Origin: an uncultured virus (IMG/VR IMGVR_UViG_3300013123_000002)
Taxonomy: Duplodnaviria > Heunggongvirae > Uroviricota > Caudoviricetes
Virus record (IMG/VR): IMGVR_UViG_3300013123_000002
Length of the DNA stretch: 20,000 nucleotides
Strand: one strand, 5' to 3'
Every line of letters starts with the position of its first letter. Within the stretch, counting starts at the first letter, position 1. Positions 3,635 to 18,614 of the stretch are shown here, in pieces. Made by a program: the position numbers and the translations under genes. The notes under the pieces are model-generated. The model worked only from the letters and a program-made list of their open reading frames with translations, was not told the origin of the DNA and did not search any database.

Positions 3635-4030
3635 TTACTTTGTCACTCCGAATATCATCGCCAGTATTATTCCAGCGATTGCAGTGAAGACTATCCAAAT
3701 GATCTTAGTAACAGTGTCCTTAAACGACATCATGTCTTTGTGTTCTTCTATAAACTTGTCGAAGTCCTTTTCCTCGGATTCTTGCTTCTTTCTGAATTCT
3801 GTGTTCTTGTTGACCCTAACGATAATTCCGTCTTCCGGATCCAGTAACTGTCTCTTTATCGCACGAAGATCTTCCTTCATTCCTTCTTGAGACTGATCGA
3901 TCCGCTCTATTCTCTCTTGAATTGCTTTTAATTCGCCGTTCGGTAGTTGCTTCTTAATGACTTCTAATGCTGTTAGAATGTCATTCATCATGTTATCCAC
4001 TGAATCGTTAGTGCCACGAGAACCTGTCAT
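3635..4030 (-). CDS. coiled-coil protein with C-terminal transmembrane helix (holin/XhlA-like architecture)
   Basis: Heptad-like charged N-terminus, then IIWIVFTAIAGIILAMIFG. Confidence 0.65.
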   Translation of the reverse strand: MTGSRGTNDSVDNMMNDILTALEVIKKQLPNGELKAIQERIERIDQSQEGMKEDLRAIKRQLLDPEDGIIVRVNKNTEFRKKQESEEKDFDKFIEEHKDMMSFKDTVTKIIWIVFTAIAGIILAMIFGVTK

Positions 4031-4067
4031 TTCGTGTACGAAGTTATTTTTAGTAAAAAGTAGTTGA

Positions 4068-4346
4068 TTAAGCGGTTGGCTCTTCGGTTTCTTCTCCCGA
4101 TGGAGCAGGCTCTTCGGATCCGTCTTCCGGACCGTCTAGCAAGGTAACTTCGTCTTGTCCAGGTTCAGTAGCTGGAATTTCGTCAGTCATTTCCGGTGTT
4201 TCCGGTTCAGCAACGATAGGTTTGGTTGGAAGTTCTGGCTGTTCCCCAATCGTAGGAACTGACATTCCACCGTCCTGAGCGGCTGTGAATTCTTCAAAAC
4301 TTAAGACCTTCTTAGCTCCGCTGCTAGTTAAACTCATTTCTGCCAT
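4068..4346 (-). CDS. acidic Pro/Glu-rich protein, possible virion internal protein
   Basis: Downstream of TATAAATA; N-terminal KKVLSFEEF motif. Confidence 0.7.
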   Translation of the reverse strand: MAEMSLTSSGAKKVLSFEEFTAAQDGGMSVPTIGEQPELPTKPIVAEPETPEMTDEIPATEPGQDEVTLLDGPEDGSEEPAPSGEETEEPTA

Positions 4347-4367
4347 GTTGGTTATGCAATTTTGAGT

Positions 4368-4375
4368 TATTTATA
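4368..4375 (-). promoter_or_regulatory. T4-like late promoter TATAAATA
   Basis: Exact T4 late consensus 21 nt upstream of ATG 4346. Confidence 0.7.
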
Positions 4376-4383
4376 CGGAAAGA

Positions 4384-4405
4384 GGAACAATTTGAGCCTC
4401 GCTCT
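4384..4405. repeat. 3'-UTR arm of inverted repeat enclosing the Zn-ribbon gene
   Basis: GGAACA-N4-GAGCCTCGCTCT on +; reverse-complement match at 5371-5390. Confidence 0.75.
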
Positions 4406-4416
4406 TGCACAAATTG

Positions 4417-5292
4417 TTAATTGTTTCTAGCGGTTCCGCACGTTGGGCAGAAGGCTTCACCGGATCTCCACCTACGGCCGCAACCTGTGCAGTACGAGCG
4501 AATCTCGCCAATCTCTGCGGGTTTTTGGCTTTCTGGAAGGATCTTCACTGTGTAGTAAGCGCAAGCGTAGAAGCTGAAATCTCCGTAAGTATCGACCAGC
4601 TTCTGGTTTGAGCGTTCACCCTTTTCGATTCTACCTGTCTCTATGTTTAGAGAGGATTTTGTCAACTTTAGGCCAATCGGTATTTTATCAGAAAAACTGT
4701 CCTCACAAGCCAGGTTCATGTTAGCTGAGTAATTAGCTGACATTCCGATGTTGTCTCCGAGACCTGCGCTTGGCGTGCTGTTGAAATAACAGTGGTCAGA
4801 CGTGAAGGTCGGATTGACGGTCGGATTTCCGGTAGTTCCGCCGCAAATTGTCGGTCCATTAATAGTGATGGAACCGTTTCCGCAGAACCAATTTTTCGGT
4901 TGGACGATCTCATCGTAGAACTCGACTGTTACCAGTCCGTTCTTTGCGATTGCAGCTCTTCCTTCAGCTGAATTTTCTGCTTCGTAGGTCGTGAATTTGA
5001 ACTTACGATCCTCTTCCAAGAACCGTTCGAGGTAACCTCTTTGGCCAGGATTCACGACGATACCTCCACCTGACACGGAAACTCCGTTGATGGAAATTTT
5101 TGCGAGAACTCTGTTTGACCTTGGATTCCAAAGCTCAATCTCAAAGGAGGTTCCGTCCTTCATGTAAACGTTTTCTCCGTAAAGCTTTAGACGATTTCTA
5201 CTCACGGTGACGTGAGCGGTTGGAGTTGGATTTGATGTTGAGTAATAGTATACTCCGCTCGAATAGTACGAGCTTGATTGATTTAGGTACAT
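4417..5292 (-). CDS. phage protein with beta-rich N-domain and C-terminal double-CxxC zinc ribbon
   Basis: C-terminal YCTGCG...FCPTCG. Start placed at ATG 5292 after an A-rich TIR; the alternative ATG 5322 lies in structured RNA. Confidence 0.8.
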   Translation of the reverse strand: MYLNQSSSYYSSGVYYYSTSNPTPTAHVTVSRNRLKLYGENVYMKDGTSFEIELWNPRSNRVLAKISINGVSVSGGGIVVNPGQRGYLERFLEEDRKFKFTTYEAENSAEGRAAIAKNGLVTVEFYDEIVQPKNWFCGNGSITINGPTICGGTTGNPTVNPTFTSDHCYFNSTPSAGLGDNIGMSANYSANMNLACEDSFSDKIPIGLKLTKSSLNIETGRIEKGERSNQKLVDTYGDFSFYACAYYTVKILPESQKPAEIGEIRSYCTGCGRRWRSGEAFCPTCGTARNN

Positions 5293-5314
5293 AGTTAGCT
5301 GTGTTATTTTTGCA

Positions 5315-5390
5315 AATCTCATCGCGACCGTTCGATCGATCGCTCAAGGGCCCTTGGACCCGAGACTCACAGAGCGAGGCTCTATGTTCC
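5315..5390 (-). ncRNA. putative structured 5' leader (hairpin plus three-way junction)
   Basis: Minus-strand stems AGTCTC/GAGATT, GGGTC/GGCCC, GCGATCG/CGGTCGC and CATAGAG/CTCTGTG in a GC-rich intergenic segment. Confidence 0.55.
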
Positions 5391-5395
5391 AATAG

Positions 5396-5403
5396 TATTT
5401 ATA
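5396..5403 (-). promoter_or_regulatory. T4-like late promoter TATAAATA
   Basis: Exact consensus immediately 5' of the structured leader. Confidence 0.7.
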
Positions 5404-5417
5404 CGATGGTTGGAAAA

Positions 5418-5747
5418 TTAGTTTTGCCGAGAAACTAGCTTAACGAAATCGCTAATAGTGTAACACAGTACAGCTTTCTGATCGTAGTGTTCCAGTGTGA
5501 ATTCTATGATCTCGTCGATCTGCGATTCGCTGCAGTAAATTCTCACAGGGATCATACGGTCGTTGAACTGTTCGTTATCTTCGCTGACCCACTGCCCCTT
5601 TGAAGTTTTGAATATGGTCAGTCCTCCAGCAATCGACCGAACTTTATCGTCCCACTGGTGGTGATAAGCAAGGTCGAACTTATTACCAGCATTGTCATGG
5701 TACGGGACAAGAATTTCCCAAAGATACTTTCGGCTAGCTATTTTCAT
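5418..5747 (-). CDS. hypothetical phage protein (109 aa)
   Basis: ORF with GGLTI...GQW...MIPVRI pattern; function unknown. Confidence 0.75.
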   Translation of the reverse strand: MKIASRKYLWEILVPYHDNAGNKFDLAYHHQWDDKVRSIAGGLTIFKTSKGQWVSEDNEQFNDRMIPVRIYCSESQIDEIIEFTLEHYDQKAVLCYTISDFVKLVSRQN

Positions 5748-6348
5748 CGAACACAGATTTGAACAGGGTTCGTAATGCAGATAAGGTCACTGTGCTCTTT
5801 GCGCTGTAATAAAGTTTGTCATCGTCTGCTTCGCCGAACATTGCAAATATTGACTCAGCATGAAATTTTTGGAGTTTGTCGACTGTTCGCTTAGCGTACA
5901 TGTACTTTCCTTCCAGGTGGGTCTCTATCTCGTTAAGCCAGTCAGCCATGACTTTGTTATGAGTTGTGAACCTTCTTTTTTCCTTCTTCCACTGATTTCC
6001 GCACTTGTTGCAGTGATTGACCTCGTTTGTGTCAATTTCCATCTCACCGTAGATACTTCCGCACCCCAAGAAAAAATCGCCGCCAACGTGACCATCACCT
6101 TGAACTCTCTGAATCTTGTCGACCACGTCAAGATTTCCGTCAGCTCCGCACTTTGGACAGGTGCTGTTGTGCAGGTTTACGTAAGACCGATTAGATTCGT
6201 CTTCTTCGGCTTCCTTTACTTTGGCCATTCCTCTGAGCTCTTCCAACTCTTTCTGAACTATAGCTCTTTGTTCAGCATTCTGCTTGTTACCTGCTTTAGC
6301 CAAGCGGTTTGTGCGCTTGACCCACCAAATTTTTAACGATTTGAACAT
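5734..6348 (-). CDS. hypothetical protein with CxxC..CxxC zinc-binding motif (204 aa)
   Basis: CPKCG and CNKCGNQW; TAG stop overlapping the next gene. Confidence 0.75.
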   Translation of the reverse strand: MFKSLKIWWVKRTNRLAKAGNKQNAEQRAIVQKELEELRGMAKVKEAEEDESNRSYVNLHNSTCPKCGADGNLDVVDKIQRVQGDGHVGGDFFLGCGSIYGEMEIDTNEVNHCNKCGNQWKKEKRRFTTHNKVMADWLNEIETHLEGKYMYAKRTVDKLQKFHAESIFAMFGEADDDKLYYSAKSTVTLSALRTLFKSVFDENS

Positions 6349-13149: not shown

Positions 13150-14121
13150 TTAGACGAAAGGTTTATCTGAGCTCCAAGCTATAGGTGTTGATCCAGCAGT
13201 AGTTACAGTCATTCCGATTGGACTGGAATCGGTTAGAAGAGAACCGTTGGTTGATGCTCTCAAAAGAAGGTGAGAATCGTAAGATATGTTCAATCCTGAT
13301 GTCGGCGCAGAAAAGTTTTCCCAGTATTTTGCAACAGTTGGATTTACGTGAAAGTTGCTTATCAACTCGGTGAAGTAAGTGGTAGAAGCGTATCCAGGGT
13401 CGATTCCCAAATGCATAACAGTTTCAGTATCAGTGATGTTGTCCGGTATGTAAGCCGCTGCTCCAAGCTGAGTGTCGTTGTGAAATATCCTCACGTAATT
13501 CTTGTAACGGCATATCGCTATGTGGATCCACTCATCCTGCCAGGTAGGCAAGCCTCTGAATATGTACTGCCCGTTGTACCAAAAATAGATTGCTCCGCTT
13601 TTCGAGCTTGTGCCGAATCCTGAAGGCCATGCACCGAACTGAAATACTCTAGGAAAATCCGAACCTAAGCTCTGTTTCTGGAACCATTCAACTGTAAAAT
13701 CATTCGTTCCTGGGAGAAGGTCGGTAGCGCTGGCTACTTCTCCGTAACACGTTCCAGTTCCAGTGAAGCTCATCGACCCGCTGACCTCGTAAGAAGTGTA
13801 CAGGCTGTTGGTAGAAAGGAACGTGTCGAACCAGGGTATCGTTGTGCCAGGTTCCAATCCTGTGCTGCTCTTGTATAGAGATTGTAGTAGCGAAAGGTAG
13901 CTAGCATCAGTCTTATTAGTGGACCTAAAGAATGTCGGTTCAGCTCCGTTCTACAAAGCTATGATGAACCCGGGTATCTCGTTTGGTTCCATGTACCACG
14001 TCAACCCACCAGGAAGTTCATCGTAATTAAGGTTCGGTTCGCCTATCGACATGTTGTAATAGGCTATCCCGCCTGCACCGATGTCTCCGATTGCAAAAGG
14101 TCTGGCTTGGTAAGTTGACAT
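13150..14121 (-). CDS. LamG/concanavalin-A-like domain protein (323 codons) containing one in-frame TAG at codon 57
   Basis: GTNDFTVEWF, WIHIAICR, YFTELISNFHV and LLLR LamG-like motifs. The frame is open from ATG 14121 except for TAG at 13951-13953. Confidence 0.75.
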
Positions 14122-16067: not shown

Positions 16068-16140
16068 GAGGGAATGGGGGAGTCGAACCCCCGACTAACG
16101 GTTTTAGAGACCGCCGTTCTACCGCTGAACTACAAACCCA
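16068..16140 (-). tRNA. amber suppressor-type tRNA (anticodon CUA), tRNA-Trp-like body
   Basis: D arm GTTC-AGCGGTA-GAAC; anticodon arm GCGGT-CT[CTA]AA-ACCGT; T arm GGGGG-TTCGACT-CCCCC. Acceptor stem imperfect; no CCA. Confidence 0.85.
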
Positions 16141-17328: not shown

Positions 17329-18384
17329 TTAACGTACCACTTTTTCCGTTGAACTGTCACTTTTCAGCTTATTAGTTTCTACTTTTTTTGAGATCCAGTG
17401 TCCGTGCGAATTGTTGATCGCCTGCCTAAATTGCGGCCGAACGTACTTGGCTATGCTCTTTCTGAAATCGCCGTAGTTGAAGCTGTCAGCTATTCGGACA
17501 ACGTAACCCTCATTAGTTTCTGAGTACTGAGCAAACGCTTTTTCGATAGCTTCTCTGTCGTAAATGCCGTCATAGATCACAGGAACTGTTTCCAGTCCAA
17601 GGATCTGAGCGTACTCAGTCGTTTCTTCCCAGGCCAAGCAAGTGTTATCGATCCAAACTGAAAACACCATGAAGTATGAAGGTAAGTTGTCATACTTCAT
17701 TGAGTGAACAGTGTAGAGGTTCTCTCCGCATATTCGCATGTTATCGTCGATCATCCAACCGATTCTGGACCACAGGCCTTTCACCCAATTCCTGGTCTCG
17801 TGACTTCCTGAGTCTAACGAACGTGCGTGGATCTTATCGTTGTACATGGTCGTGTTCTCACCGTCCATCTTCAAGGTAACGATGACTCTTTTTCCGACAA
17901 AATGATCGTCGTTCGCCAAGATTCTGTCATCCTTTAGTAAATTGCTCCAAGGAAGGTGCATCGTTCTCGGGTACTTAACGTACTTTTGAAACAAGTGTAG
18001 CATGTTCCCTTCTGATAGGACTTTCTGAACGGATTCGTCGTAAAAGAGTTCACCTCTCAATCTAAAGCCGTTGGGCAGAATTATGTTTCCCCACTTATCG
18101 TATTGGAGATCATCGTACATGTGATCAGGTATGACGATCTGAGTTATACCAGCACTGTTGCGAATCTCGTTGCACGATAGAGTAGTTCTTTCTGCTGCAA
18201 GGTGGTGGTACTCGCACAGAGAAGCTCCGTTTTCTAGGTAATAACCTCCGTCTGAAAACAGCCTACGCTCTATGATGTGATGTGCGTCCTTAGCCGGGTT
18301 GCCGCACATCACACACGAGTAATTATCGCGAGCAAAAACTAGCGACCTAAAATCGTCCCGTGAGTATAGTGCTGGTGTTTCCAT
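17329..18384 (-). CDS. HNH endonuclease-domain / RNA ligase (Rnl2-like) fusion (351 aa)
   Basis: N-term VFARDNYSCVMC..DAHHI..NGASLCEYHH; C-term KYPRT.HLPWS, KMDGEN, CGENLY, EGYVVR, AKYVR. Start reset to ATG 18384 because the track ORF runs through a tRNA. Confidence 0.88.
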   Translation of the reverse strand: METPALYSRDDFRSLVFARDNYSCVMCGNPAKDAHHIIERRLFSDGGYYLENGASLCEYHHLAAERTTLSCNEIRNSAGITQIVIPDHMYDDLQYDKWGNIILPNGFRLRGELFYDESVQKVLSEGNMLHLFQKYVKYPRTMHLPWSNLLKDDRILANDDHFVGKRVIVTLKMDGENTTMYNDKIHARSLDSGSHETRNWVKGLWSRIGWMIDDNMRICGENLYTVHSMKYDNLPSYFMVFSVWIDNTCLAWEETTEYAQILGLETVPVIYDGIYDREAIEKAFAQYSETNEGYVVRIADSFNYGDFRKSIAKYVRPQFRQAINNSHGHWISKKVETNKLKSDSSTEKVVR

Positions 18385-18400
18385 GAGAGTATTGTACCAA

Positions 18401-18437
18401 TAAAAAACCTCACCCTTTTCAGGATGAGGTAAAAAAA
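18401..18437 (-). terminator. rho-independent terminator after tRNA-fMet
   Basis: Minus strand ACCTCATCC-TGAAAA-GGGTGAGGT followed by a T-run; A-run on the other side. Confidence 0.7.
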
Positions 18438-18482
18438 TAGTAGGTAGATTCCAGTACTTGCCCGATGCGATACCTACAAGTG

Positions 18483-18555
18483 TTGCGGGAGAAGGATTCG
18501 AACCTTCGACCTCAAGGTTATGAGCCTTGCGAGCTACCTCTGCTGCCACCCCGCG
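18483..18555 (-). tRNA. tRNA-fMet (initiator, anticodon CAT)
   Basis: CGCGGGG...TCCCGCA-A with C1:A72 mismatch; CAAGG-CT[CAT]AA-CCTTG; GAAGG-TTCGAAT-CCTTC; no CCA. Confidence 0.93.
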
Positions 18556-18559
18556 ATGT

Positions 18560-18614
18560 AAAAAACGGGCGCCTTTAATAAACTTGATCGAGAACGTCAC
18601 GCTAGCGCCCGTTT
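18560..18614 (-). repeat. inverted repeat / terminator-like hairpin just upstream of tRNA-fMet
   Basis: AAACGGGCGC/GCGCCCGTTT (10 bp, 32-nt loop) followed by a T-run. Confidence 0.6.

Follow-up and report, generated by a model that had tools for sequence, protein, structure and literature searches.

The DNA analysed here, called the window throughout, is a stretch of 20,000 nucleotides from an uncultured virus of the Caudoviricetes (IMG/VR record IMGVR_UViG_3300013123_000002), and the subject is one of its genes, whose predicted mRNA carries two complementary segments, one at its 5' end and the other shortly after its stop codon, that can pair over about 1 kb in a helix named P0. The two arms of P0, the gene, the leader that precedes it and the two late-promoter-like boxes that frame the locus all lie on the minus strand. 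All the evidence is computational, and the ends of the transcript are predicted ones. The features of the locus are the following:

5396..5403, minus strand: late-promoter-like box TATAAATA, read from the sequence; transcription is predicted to start (+1) six bases past the box, at the G at 5390
5371..5390, minus strand: 5' arm of P0, formed by GGAACA, the internal loop UA and GAGCCUCGCUCU (RNA, 5382-5371); from sequence, repeat search and folding
5368..5386, minus strand: alternative 5' hairpin CAUAGAGC-CUC-GCUCUGUG, predicted by folding at -10.2 kcal/mol, whose formation excludes P0
5312..5370, minus strand: three-way-junction leader, with helices P1 (5370-5362/5320-5312), P2 (5361-5357/5352-5348) and P3 (5343-5337/5330-5324), and UUGA between P2 and P3
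5290..5311, minus strand: A-rich unpaired spacer and the homolog-supported AUG (5292-5290), from homolog starts and the full-length fold
4417..5322, minus strand: coding region, an open reading frame (ORF) of 301 aa, or 291 aa from M11, for an Ig-like beta-sandwich with a disordered variable linker and a C-terminal zinc ribbon
4386..4418, minus strand: alternative 3' hairpin AACAAUUUGUGC...GCUCAAAUUGUU, predicted by folding at -9.6 kcal/mol, which overlaps the stop codon
4384..4405, minus strand: 3' arm of P0, formed by AGAGCGAGGCUC (4405-4394), the internal loop AAAU (4393-4390) and UGUUCC (4389-4384); from sequence, repeats and folding
4368..4375, minus strand: next late-promoter-like box TATAAATA, which serves the downstream 92-aa gene (4068-4346)

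On the 5' side, the minus strand reads TATAAATA (5403-5396), the spacer CTATT and then the predicted transcript start at 5390, and it is at this spacing after the box that T4-type late promoters start transcription. The 5' arm begins right there, as GGAACA (5390-5385), TA (5384-5383) and GAGCCTCGCTCT (5382-5371). On the other side, the 3' arm starts 11 nt beyond the TAA stop codon (4419-4417) and consists of AGAGCGAGGCTC (4405-4394), AAAT (4393-4390) and TGTTCC (4389-4384), with the next TATAAATA box (4375-4368) 8 nt past its end. Re-reading the sequence reproduced the positions that a first-pass annotation of this DNA had given for the arms, and also the places it had described for the first box, 5 nt ahead of the transcript, for the stop codon, just before the 3' arm, and for the next late promoter, within 10 nt of the arm. 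The perfect pairing of 12 + 6 bp closing about 1 kb that it had described is borne out as well, both by folding and by a repeat search, in which the 12-nt arms, spaced by 965 nt, are 100% complementary; the two arms are exact complements along both segments of P0. Allowing up to one mismatch, the 12-mer occurs only at these two sites in the 131,445-bp contig (a reversed control pattern had 0 matches), and when the first 24 transcribed bases after each of the 52 late-promoter-like boxes of the contig are compared with the 4 kb downstream, a complement of at least 12 nt turns up for this box alone, which makes a chance origin of the pairing unlikely. By our own arithmetic, two stretches of 30 and 45 nt would have a 12-mer match with a chance of about 4e-5; the rough estimate made at first was 1e-3 or less.

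When the 1015-nt transcript is folded, P0 is found in both the minimum free energy (MFE) and the centroid structure, and all its 18 pairs have predicted pair probabilities of 0.72-1.0. The two ends co-folded reach -35.4 kcal/mol, versus -10.2 (5') and -9.6 (3') for the local hairpins. Regarding the start of the gene, homologs begin with a 'MY...' sequence that corresponds to M11 of the window protein (ATG at 5292-5290), so that the 5' untranslated region (UTR) is about 98 nt long instead of 68; the upstream ATG sits in a conserved RNA helix and is not kept as a codon in the homologs. No Shine-Dalgarno sequence is visible before the start of this gene or before that of the next one, and the hosts appear to be organisms without Shine-Dalgarno use.

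The conservation of P0 was evaluated on relatives of the locus. A scan of viral contigs provided 74 loci, 73 of them with a complete ORF and flanks, which collapse into 50 distinct flank pairs, and metagenomes, scanned in turn, contributed 15 more that are distinct and complete, giving 65 distinct loci in total. In each, the 30-nt window ending at the start of P1 was paired with the 45 nt that follow the stop codon, with a cut-off of -17 kcal/mol, instead of the wider RNAduplex windows, which gave spurious long extensions. A 5'/3' duplex of -17 kcal/mol or better is present in 35 of the 50 viral loci (the other 15 fall below) and P0 is present in 7 of the 15 metagenome loci, so that it is kept in 42/65 distinct loci, with a 3' partner within the first ~25 bases of the 3' UTR. 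In the window clade it measures 18-25 bp and includes an internal loop; in types E, F, I and K it has 10-14 bp. The arms come in 11 different types, A-H plus I and J, from the metagenomes, and K, from a named huge-phage record:

Type A (the window): arms GAGCCUCGCUCU / AGAGCGAGGCUC
Type B: arms AAAGCCUCGUGUGG / CCACACGAGGCUUU
Type C: arm UUAGAGCCUCUC, plus a second helix, GAAGAAG / CUUCUU
Type D: arm GAAACCUUGUUGAU
Type E: arm CUGGGGAGCC
Type F: arm UAGAGCCUGA
Types G and H: further distinct arm sequences
Type I (locus L101): arms ACCCUUCUCUCUUU / AAAGAGAGAAGGGU
Type J: locus L088
Type K (LR756500): arms UCUCACUUUGUU / AACAAAGUGAGA

Two further cases were considered and not counted as P0, namely the n2-type loci (L030 group), with a duplex of -14 kcal/mol that joins the 5' hairpin with a terminator stem, and LR756508 (L120), which reaches -25.5 kcal/mol in a scattered pattern.

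Many different sequences preserve the same pairing, which is hence very probably functional. In a swap test with one representative for each of 13 types, 8 of them helix types, the own 3' UTR was the best partner in 7/8 helix types, and the observed summed duplex energy (-228.8, versus a permutation mean of -134.2) was reached by 0 of 20,000 permutations. When 16 distinct arm pairs anchored on their AGCC core are compared, 84.4% of the cells pair, against 27-50% when the arms are slid by 1-3, and both sides have changed in 12 of the 16 columns; one position of P0 is U-A in the window, U.G in L019 and C-G in L084. At the opposite end of the divergence scale, the relative with an 89%-identical protein shows 0 differences over 96 nt of the 5' UTR and 1 over 52 nt of the 3' UTR, its neighbour genes being 80-91% identical. 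Furthermore, the arm types track the protein clades on a quick tree and, therefore, arms and gene evolve together. The compensatory 5'/3' UTR complementarity that the first-pass annotation had proposed to look for in homologous loci is hence clearly there, as seen in the permutations, the both-side changes and the 11 arm types, and the long-range fold-back of the mRNA that it had suggested is supported by covariation as an RNA-level helix. P0 is very probably a real and selected RNA helix.

Both arms lie within the predicted transcript. On the promoter side, 20 of the 35 distinct helix-bearing viral loci have a box with at most two mismatches that is separated from the arm by exactly 5 nt, three type-C loci have the same spacing by reading (the automated pick chose the wrong box there), and in the remaining helix-bearing loci the spacer between box and arm measures 1-9 nt.

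The window protein matches nothing in Pfam or PHROG and, in Foldseek against the PDB, nothing at E 1e-3 or better; a wide VIA-align fold search returned generic beta-sandwich matches only, with Z under 8, and a search of the protein atlas returned only 'hypothetical protein' clusters. Its AlphaFold (AF2) model, with a mean pLDDT of 61, consists of one Ig-like beta-sandwich, into which a disordered linker (residues 142-223) is inserted, and a zinc ribbon, and many of the 520 homologs found at E 1e-3 or better have a precomputed C-terminal zinc ribbon (PF13240 on some). At 4701-4772, within the linker, an RNA-library contig carries 82 other bases in place of 70 of the window, a replacement that agrees with the variable length of the disordered residues 142-223 in the protein alignment and the model. 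By tblastn, homologs are found in Prevotella Lak megaphages and in uncultured huge phages of 460-735 kb, and blastn of positions 4000-5800 against 50,697 phage records gave zero matches. The contig is estimated to be 51% complete at 131 kb, and the phage is therefore probably a jumbo phage.

Covariation alone leaves room for another explanation, because a single protein recognising both arms would also couple their changes: the arms could be, at the DNA level, the terminal inverted repeats of a mobile cassette, as the first-pass annotation had also contemplated. The repeats do bound a single ORF, and recognition by one protein would make them co-vary. Nonetheless, neither the promoter box nor the terminators are enclosed by the arms, the former being outside the 5' arm and the latter outside the 3' arm, the protein lacks any transposase, integrase or endonuclease match in the Pfam, PHROG and fold searches, and the flanks, CTATT and TCTTT, show no direct repeat of the kind left by a target duplication. 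In addition, the gene is in place in 27/27 informative loci, about 400 nt upstream of a 131-aa gene (at least 61% identity), with 0 empty sites among them, which answers in the negative the proposal to look for such sites in relatives, and all type-A loci keep the 131-aa gene in synteny downstream. The arm types follow the protein clades, the two loops within the arms are unequal (2 vs 4 nt) and G.U pairs are tolerated, and most relatives devoid of the helix have a local hairpin in place of P0. All this makes a mobile cassette very improbable.

Between the 5' arm and the AUG, all clades have in common a structured leader, composed of a 9-bp P1, the P2 hairpin, UUGA, the P3 hairpin and, after them, an A-rich spacer. 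RNAalifold on the MAFFT alignment of 50 distinct leader loci recovered only 5 pairs of P1; P2 and P3 were proposed by eye and then tested. On 49 distinct sequences, pairing holds in 81.9% of the cells and falls to 42-49% on sliding; changes on both sides are seen in 17 of the 21 pairs, and the covariation score was reached by 0/500 shuffles. At gathering score, Rfam 15 finds two tRNAs in the whole window and nothing on the leader or the arms, and with E up to 10 the region 4200-5600 has four matches only, at chance level and to unrelated eukaryotic or archaeal families. Searched with a covariance model of the leader, the 131-kb contig yields a single copy (E 1.7e-16); the model also matches two records of huge phages, LR756500 (E 8e-9) and LR756504 (E 8e-7), and has no match in LR756508 or in two Lak records. 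Between the end of the 5' arm and P1 there are 0-6 nt, the gap being 0 in the window, where the arm directly abuts P1 and P0 and P1 can therefore stack on each other. As the coding region would then leave and re-enter at the P0/P1 junction, the stop codon, 11 nt from P0, would come near the start region. The junction of the leader is probably an operator for a protein or a ligand.

P0 is not the only pairing that its arms can form. The local 5' hairpin that the first-pass annotation had described as mutually exclusive with the long-range helix is indeed predicted at 5386-5368; it is present in most type-A relatives (-6.8) and weak in others. The local 3' hairpin, absent from that annotation, holds part of the 3' arm in its loop, and similar ones are found in most arm types. 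In the window clade the 5' arm has thus three partners, its own hairpin, the start codon and the 3' arm, the last being by far the most stable. When the leader is folded alone, nucleotides 5-7 of the 5' arm bind the AUG in most distinct type-A leaders (11 of 13), as they do in the one leader available for each of types G and H; in leader-only folds of types B-F this pairing appears in 0/15. In the MFE and centroid structures of the full-length transcript, the start region is largely unpaired, with the A-rich spacer and the AUG open. These predicted alternative pairings fit a folding pathway or a switch, and that of the start codon looks limited to certain clades and thinly supported. The idea that the two local hairpins are a direct repeat of one protein-binding hairpin was rejected, given that their loops in the window are complementary (CUC, GAG) rather than identical; most of the other arm types being non-palindromic also contradicts it.

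These competing structures bear on the possibility that P0 is mainly a translational switch, in which the 5' arm would mask the AUG until the 3' arm is made, that is, the inverse of the fold-back inhibition of hok. The pairing of the AUG in the type-A, G and H leader-only folds and the open start region of the full-length fold are what such a switch would look like, and locus L083, with CAUGG in the arm and CACAUG at the start, offers a possible A-U to G-C change. The masking helix, however, has just about 6 A/U-rich bp, and none of the 15 type B-F leaders pairs the AUG; besides, positions +1 to +6 of the ORF are fixed by the conserved Met-Tyr, which leaves only two positions free to vary, and a CAU within a 20-nt arm is common by chance. 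As the chief function of P0, a switch of this kind is unlikely. The proposal of the first-pass annotation that P0 is a switch like the fold-back of type I toxin mRNAs holds in one part: a switch-like element is possible, inasmuch as type-A leaders without the 3' UTR pair the AUG, whereas the logic of hok does not apply to an mRNA whose start is open in the predicted closed form and whose product has 291-301 aa.

The sequence beyond the 3' arm is relevant to three other readings. Terminator hairpins follow the 3' arm in several types, and none lies between the 3' arm and the next promoter box in the window. P0 could in principle be a split intrinsic terminator, made of a helix with a distant arm and followed by a U run, since types I, E, B and C have 4-7 U directly after the 3' arm (e.g., GGGUUUUUUUAG in L101 and CCCCAGUUUUU in L055). 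This is highly unlikely, given that the window arm is followed by CUCUUUCCG, a poor U tract, that types D, G and H carry a separate terminator hairpin, and that several of the U runs can be explained by pairing with A-rich bases near the promoter or the stop codon. Another candidate, the circularisation of the mRNA, relies on the ORF at 17329-18600 of the window, which matches an RNA ligase family (phrog_24030, E 3e-124): P0 would align the ends, which the pairing does bring close, for their joining by this phage ligase. The 3' arm of the window clade, with no terminator after it, is not at a defined 3' end, and the 5' triphosphate of a primary transcript is no ligase substrate, so that the chances of this scenario are slim indeed. 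In the contigs of four RNA-library runs no back-joint was seen, though contigs would not be expected to reveal one.

More serious is the possibility of a long-range RNase III processing stem that would excise the cistron from read-through late transcripts and leave a protective duplex stub at the 3' end. In types F, E, I and K the helix has only 10-14 bp, which is short for that enzyme, an intrinsic terminator is already there in several types, a few bases past the 3' arm, and the 6-8-bp hairpin of the helix-less relatives is no substrate for RNase III. On the other side of the balance are the 18-25 bp with internal loop of the window clade, the lack of a terminator separating its 3' arm from the next promoter, and the case of icaR, whose 5'/3' duplex is cut by RNase III according to the part of PMC7821165 consulted. 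Taken together, processing by RNase III is given a low probability as the explanation of P0.

Among the 15 distinct viral loci without P0, folding was applied to 11. Nine of them, which belong to three of the five helix-less groups, have a local hairpin of 6-8 bp ending exactly at the start of P1 (e.g., AGAGC-GCUU-GCUCU in L056, and also L030 and L028); the other two folded loci, L031 and L076, show no local 5' hairpin. In LR756504 it is P1 itself that follows the promoter box, at the 5' end. Helix-less forms are found in at least two places on the quick protein tree, with L056 and L106 nested within type A. What unites the loci with and without P0, as far as the predicted folds and starts go, is a helix placed at the 5' terminus that is predicted for the transcript.

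Other relatives have a different organisation. In the Lak phages B5 (L118) and A1 (L122), whose leader is short and unstructured, without the three-way junction and the 5'/3' helix, an in-frame TAG lies a few codons past the likely ATG, at a position that differs between the two. The divergent metagenome loci L087 and L091 have another leader, GUUAGCUUC...GAAGUUAGCUAA, and a plain terminator, with neither the three-way junction nor P0.

The reading that we favour, and consider more likely than not, is that P0 would act chiefly by burying the 5' end of the mRNA, thereby stabilising, and possibly licensing, the full-length molecule. In silico, P0 joins the first ~20 nt of the transcript to a segment 11 nt past the stop codon, closing a loop of about 1 kb; it starts at, or a few bases from, the predicted +1 and runs, gapless in the window, into P1 of the family-specific leader. 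Both the 5' terminus and the 3' UTR would in this way be buried in a duplex, which would shield the full-length mRNA from nucleases dependent on a free 5' end or on access to the leader, as local 5'-terminal stem-loops and the 5'/3' UTR pairing of hbs do. In relatives without a 3' arm, the local 5'-terminal hairpin at the same spot might serve the same end. In the window clade, P0 may double as a switch that frees the AUG only after the synthesis of the 3' UTR, a role conceivable because two weaker partners compete for the 5' arm, namely its own hairpin and the region of the start codon. Contigs from RNA libraries, assembled from four runs of two studies (sludge and wastewater), contain relatives that are ~90% alike over most of the gene.

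Several observations weigh against the protective reading or parts of it. P0 is absent in 23/65 distinct loci, and so dispensable for the gene, and the Lak phage homologs lack both the leader and P0. The comparison of G.U with A.C mismatches, which would reveal pairing of the sense strand, is of little help: the raw counts (38 G.U vs 4 A.C) are biased by the extension of the helix ends, and the internal pairs (~6 G.U vs 2-3 A.C) are too few to decide. The +1 is derived from the T4-type late-promoter rule, and the promoter boxes of types other than A are only AT-rich look-alikes. As no terminator follows the 3' arm in the window clade, many transcripts may read into the next gene. Regarding the switch, the pairing between AUG and 5' arm occurs in 13/30 leaders in total, of types A, G and H only, and it rests on the one possible compensatory change of L083, read by eye. 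Equilibrium folding omits co-transcriptional traps and ribosomes, and the local hairpins could keep the two ends apart. Finally, the RNA-library contigs attest to the presence of the relatives only, since ends, strand and circles are not visible in contigs.

A more ambitious version of the protective reading can be formulated, in which the mRNA would be a closed, self-checking loop: the leader would stack on P0, the stop codon would lie near the start, and the 5' arm would toggle between the AUG and the 3' UTR, so that only mRNAs with an intact 3' end would be translated and terminating ribosomes would be freed beside an initiation site without Shine-Dalgarno sequence. This picture is an unlikely one.

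How does P0 compare with the known cases? Bacterial and phage mRNAs, such as that of ompA with its leader, can be stabilised by 5'-terminal stem-loops. P0 resembles them in that its helix is at, or a few bases from, the 5' end, and 9/11 folded helix-less relatives have a local version; unlike them, the second strand of the window helix comes from the 3' UTR, 965 nt away. RNase III stems flank the 16S and 23S rRNAs, and there are RNase III sites between the early genes of T7. As in the rRNA stems, complementary segments bracket about 1 kb here, with 18-25 bp and an internal loop in the window clade; in contrast to the rRNA and T7 stems, the helix has 10-14 bp in other clades and its 5' strand is already the (predicted) end of the transcript.

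Among the pairings between UTRs, the tac/fbi interaction of hok joins the 5' end of the mRNA to its 3' end, is supported by covariation and competes with local pairings, as described in the portion of PMC9841398 consulted. The window mRNA shares with it the pairing of the 5' end with the 3' UTR, the covariation and the local competitors. The differences are that hok encodes a small toxin and has an antisense RNA, whereas here the product is a beta-sandwich/zinc-ribbon protein of 291-301 aa (an antisense RNA was not searched for here), that the fold-back of hok makes its mRNA untranslatable, whereas here the start region is open in the closed form of the predicted fold, and that P0 encloses about 1 kb. 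The 5'/3'-UTR interaction of the hbs mRNA of Bacillus subtilis, as far as the accounts consulted describe it, is the functional model that we prefer, with a protective role as the likely common trait; a geometry of this type, in which the 5' end is buried and the leader is structured, is predicted here and is consistent with protective pairing. Unlike hbs, a single bacterial gene studied experimentally, this is a family of phage genes with 11 covarying arm types that pair from the predicted first nucleotide. In the icaR mRNA of Staphylococcus aureus, the 3' UTR binds the 5' UTR by base pairing (consulted parts of PMC3868564 and PMC7821165), and a UCCCC motif masks the ribosome-binding site, creates a target for RNase III and lowers expression (PMC7821165, same parts). 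Unlike that motif, the 3' arm of P0 pairs with nucleotides +1 to +20, ~80-98 nt upstream of the AUG at +99, where no Shine-Dalgarno is visible. Altogether, what sets P0 apart from all these UTR pairings is that it is a family-wide trait of a phage gene, that it starts at the predicted +1, that it spans about 1 kb and that it is fused to an undescribed leader.

Some features of the neighbourhood were also recorded. The 131-aa gene (3635-4030, minus strand), two genes downstream of the studied one, is 61-65% identical among relatives, versus 42-48% for the studied gene; it follows the latter in every type-A relative and has only weak matches, to a PHROG 'hemolysin' and to DUF2951. About 60-100 nt upstream of the 5' arm, the type-A loci L007 and L008 have, by reading, a sequence resembling the 3' end of a tRNA (..GGTTCGAATCC..), so that the gene has a fixed downstream neighbour and a variable upstream one. 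In the next gene, the 21-nt leader (4347-4367, minus strand), from the TATAAATA box to the ATG at 4346, is 100% identical in the 89% relative. Further away, a tRNA with anticodon CUA at 16068-16140 (minus strand; labelled tRNA-Pyl by ARAGORN) reads UAG, and when TAG is read as a residue, the ORF at 13150-13857, which has a TTG start and virion-protein PHROG matches, and that at 13951-14121 (minus strand) merge into one 323-aa ORF with an ATG start. This hints at a possible recoding of TAG in late genes, of the kind that has been reported for some huge phages. In the ORF at 17329-18600, residues 79-413 match an RNA ligase PHROG and residues 80-147 HNH endonuclease PHROGs; a tRNA-Met gene (18482-18555, minus strand) lies inside its 5' part and, therefore, the true start of that gene is downstream of the tRNA.

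Pairing of the 5' UTR with the 3' UTR within one bacterial mRNA is known for a handful of cases (hok, RNAIII, icaR and hbs, going by the parts of the sources consulted), and a review of 2021 asks, in the part of PMC7821165 consulted, whether this intra-mRNA pairing applies more widely. No description of the end pairing and the leader of this phage family was found in the literature, with open-access papers and bioRxiv covered. Through at least 11 arm sequences, P0 emerges as a trait of a gene family of jumbo and huge phages found in lakes, in sludge and in digesters. Its variants, which comprise local-hairpin forms, forms with no helix and the U-A / U.G / C-G exchanges, constitute a natural compensatory series in which end pairing can be put to the test. 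The three-way-junction leader, for its part, is a candidate RNA motif to be added to the few known from huge phages. If the closed-loop version were true, these mRNAs would be a bacterial-virus counterpart of the circularisation of eukaryotic mRNAs, achieved by RNA alone.

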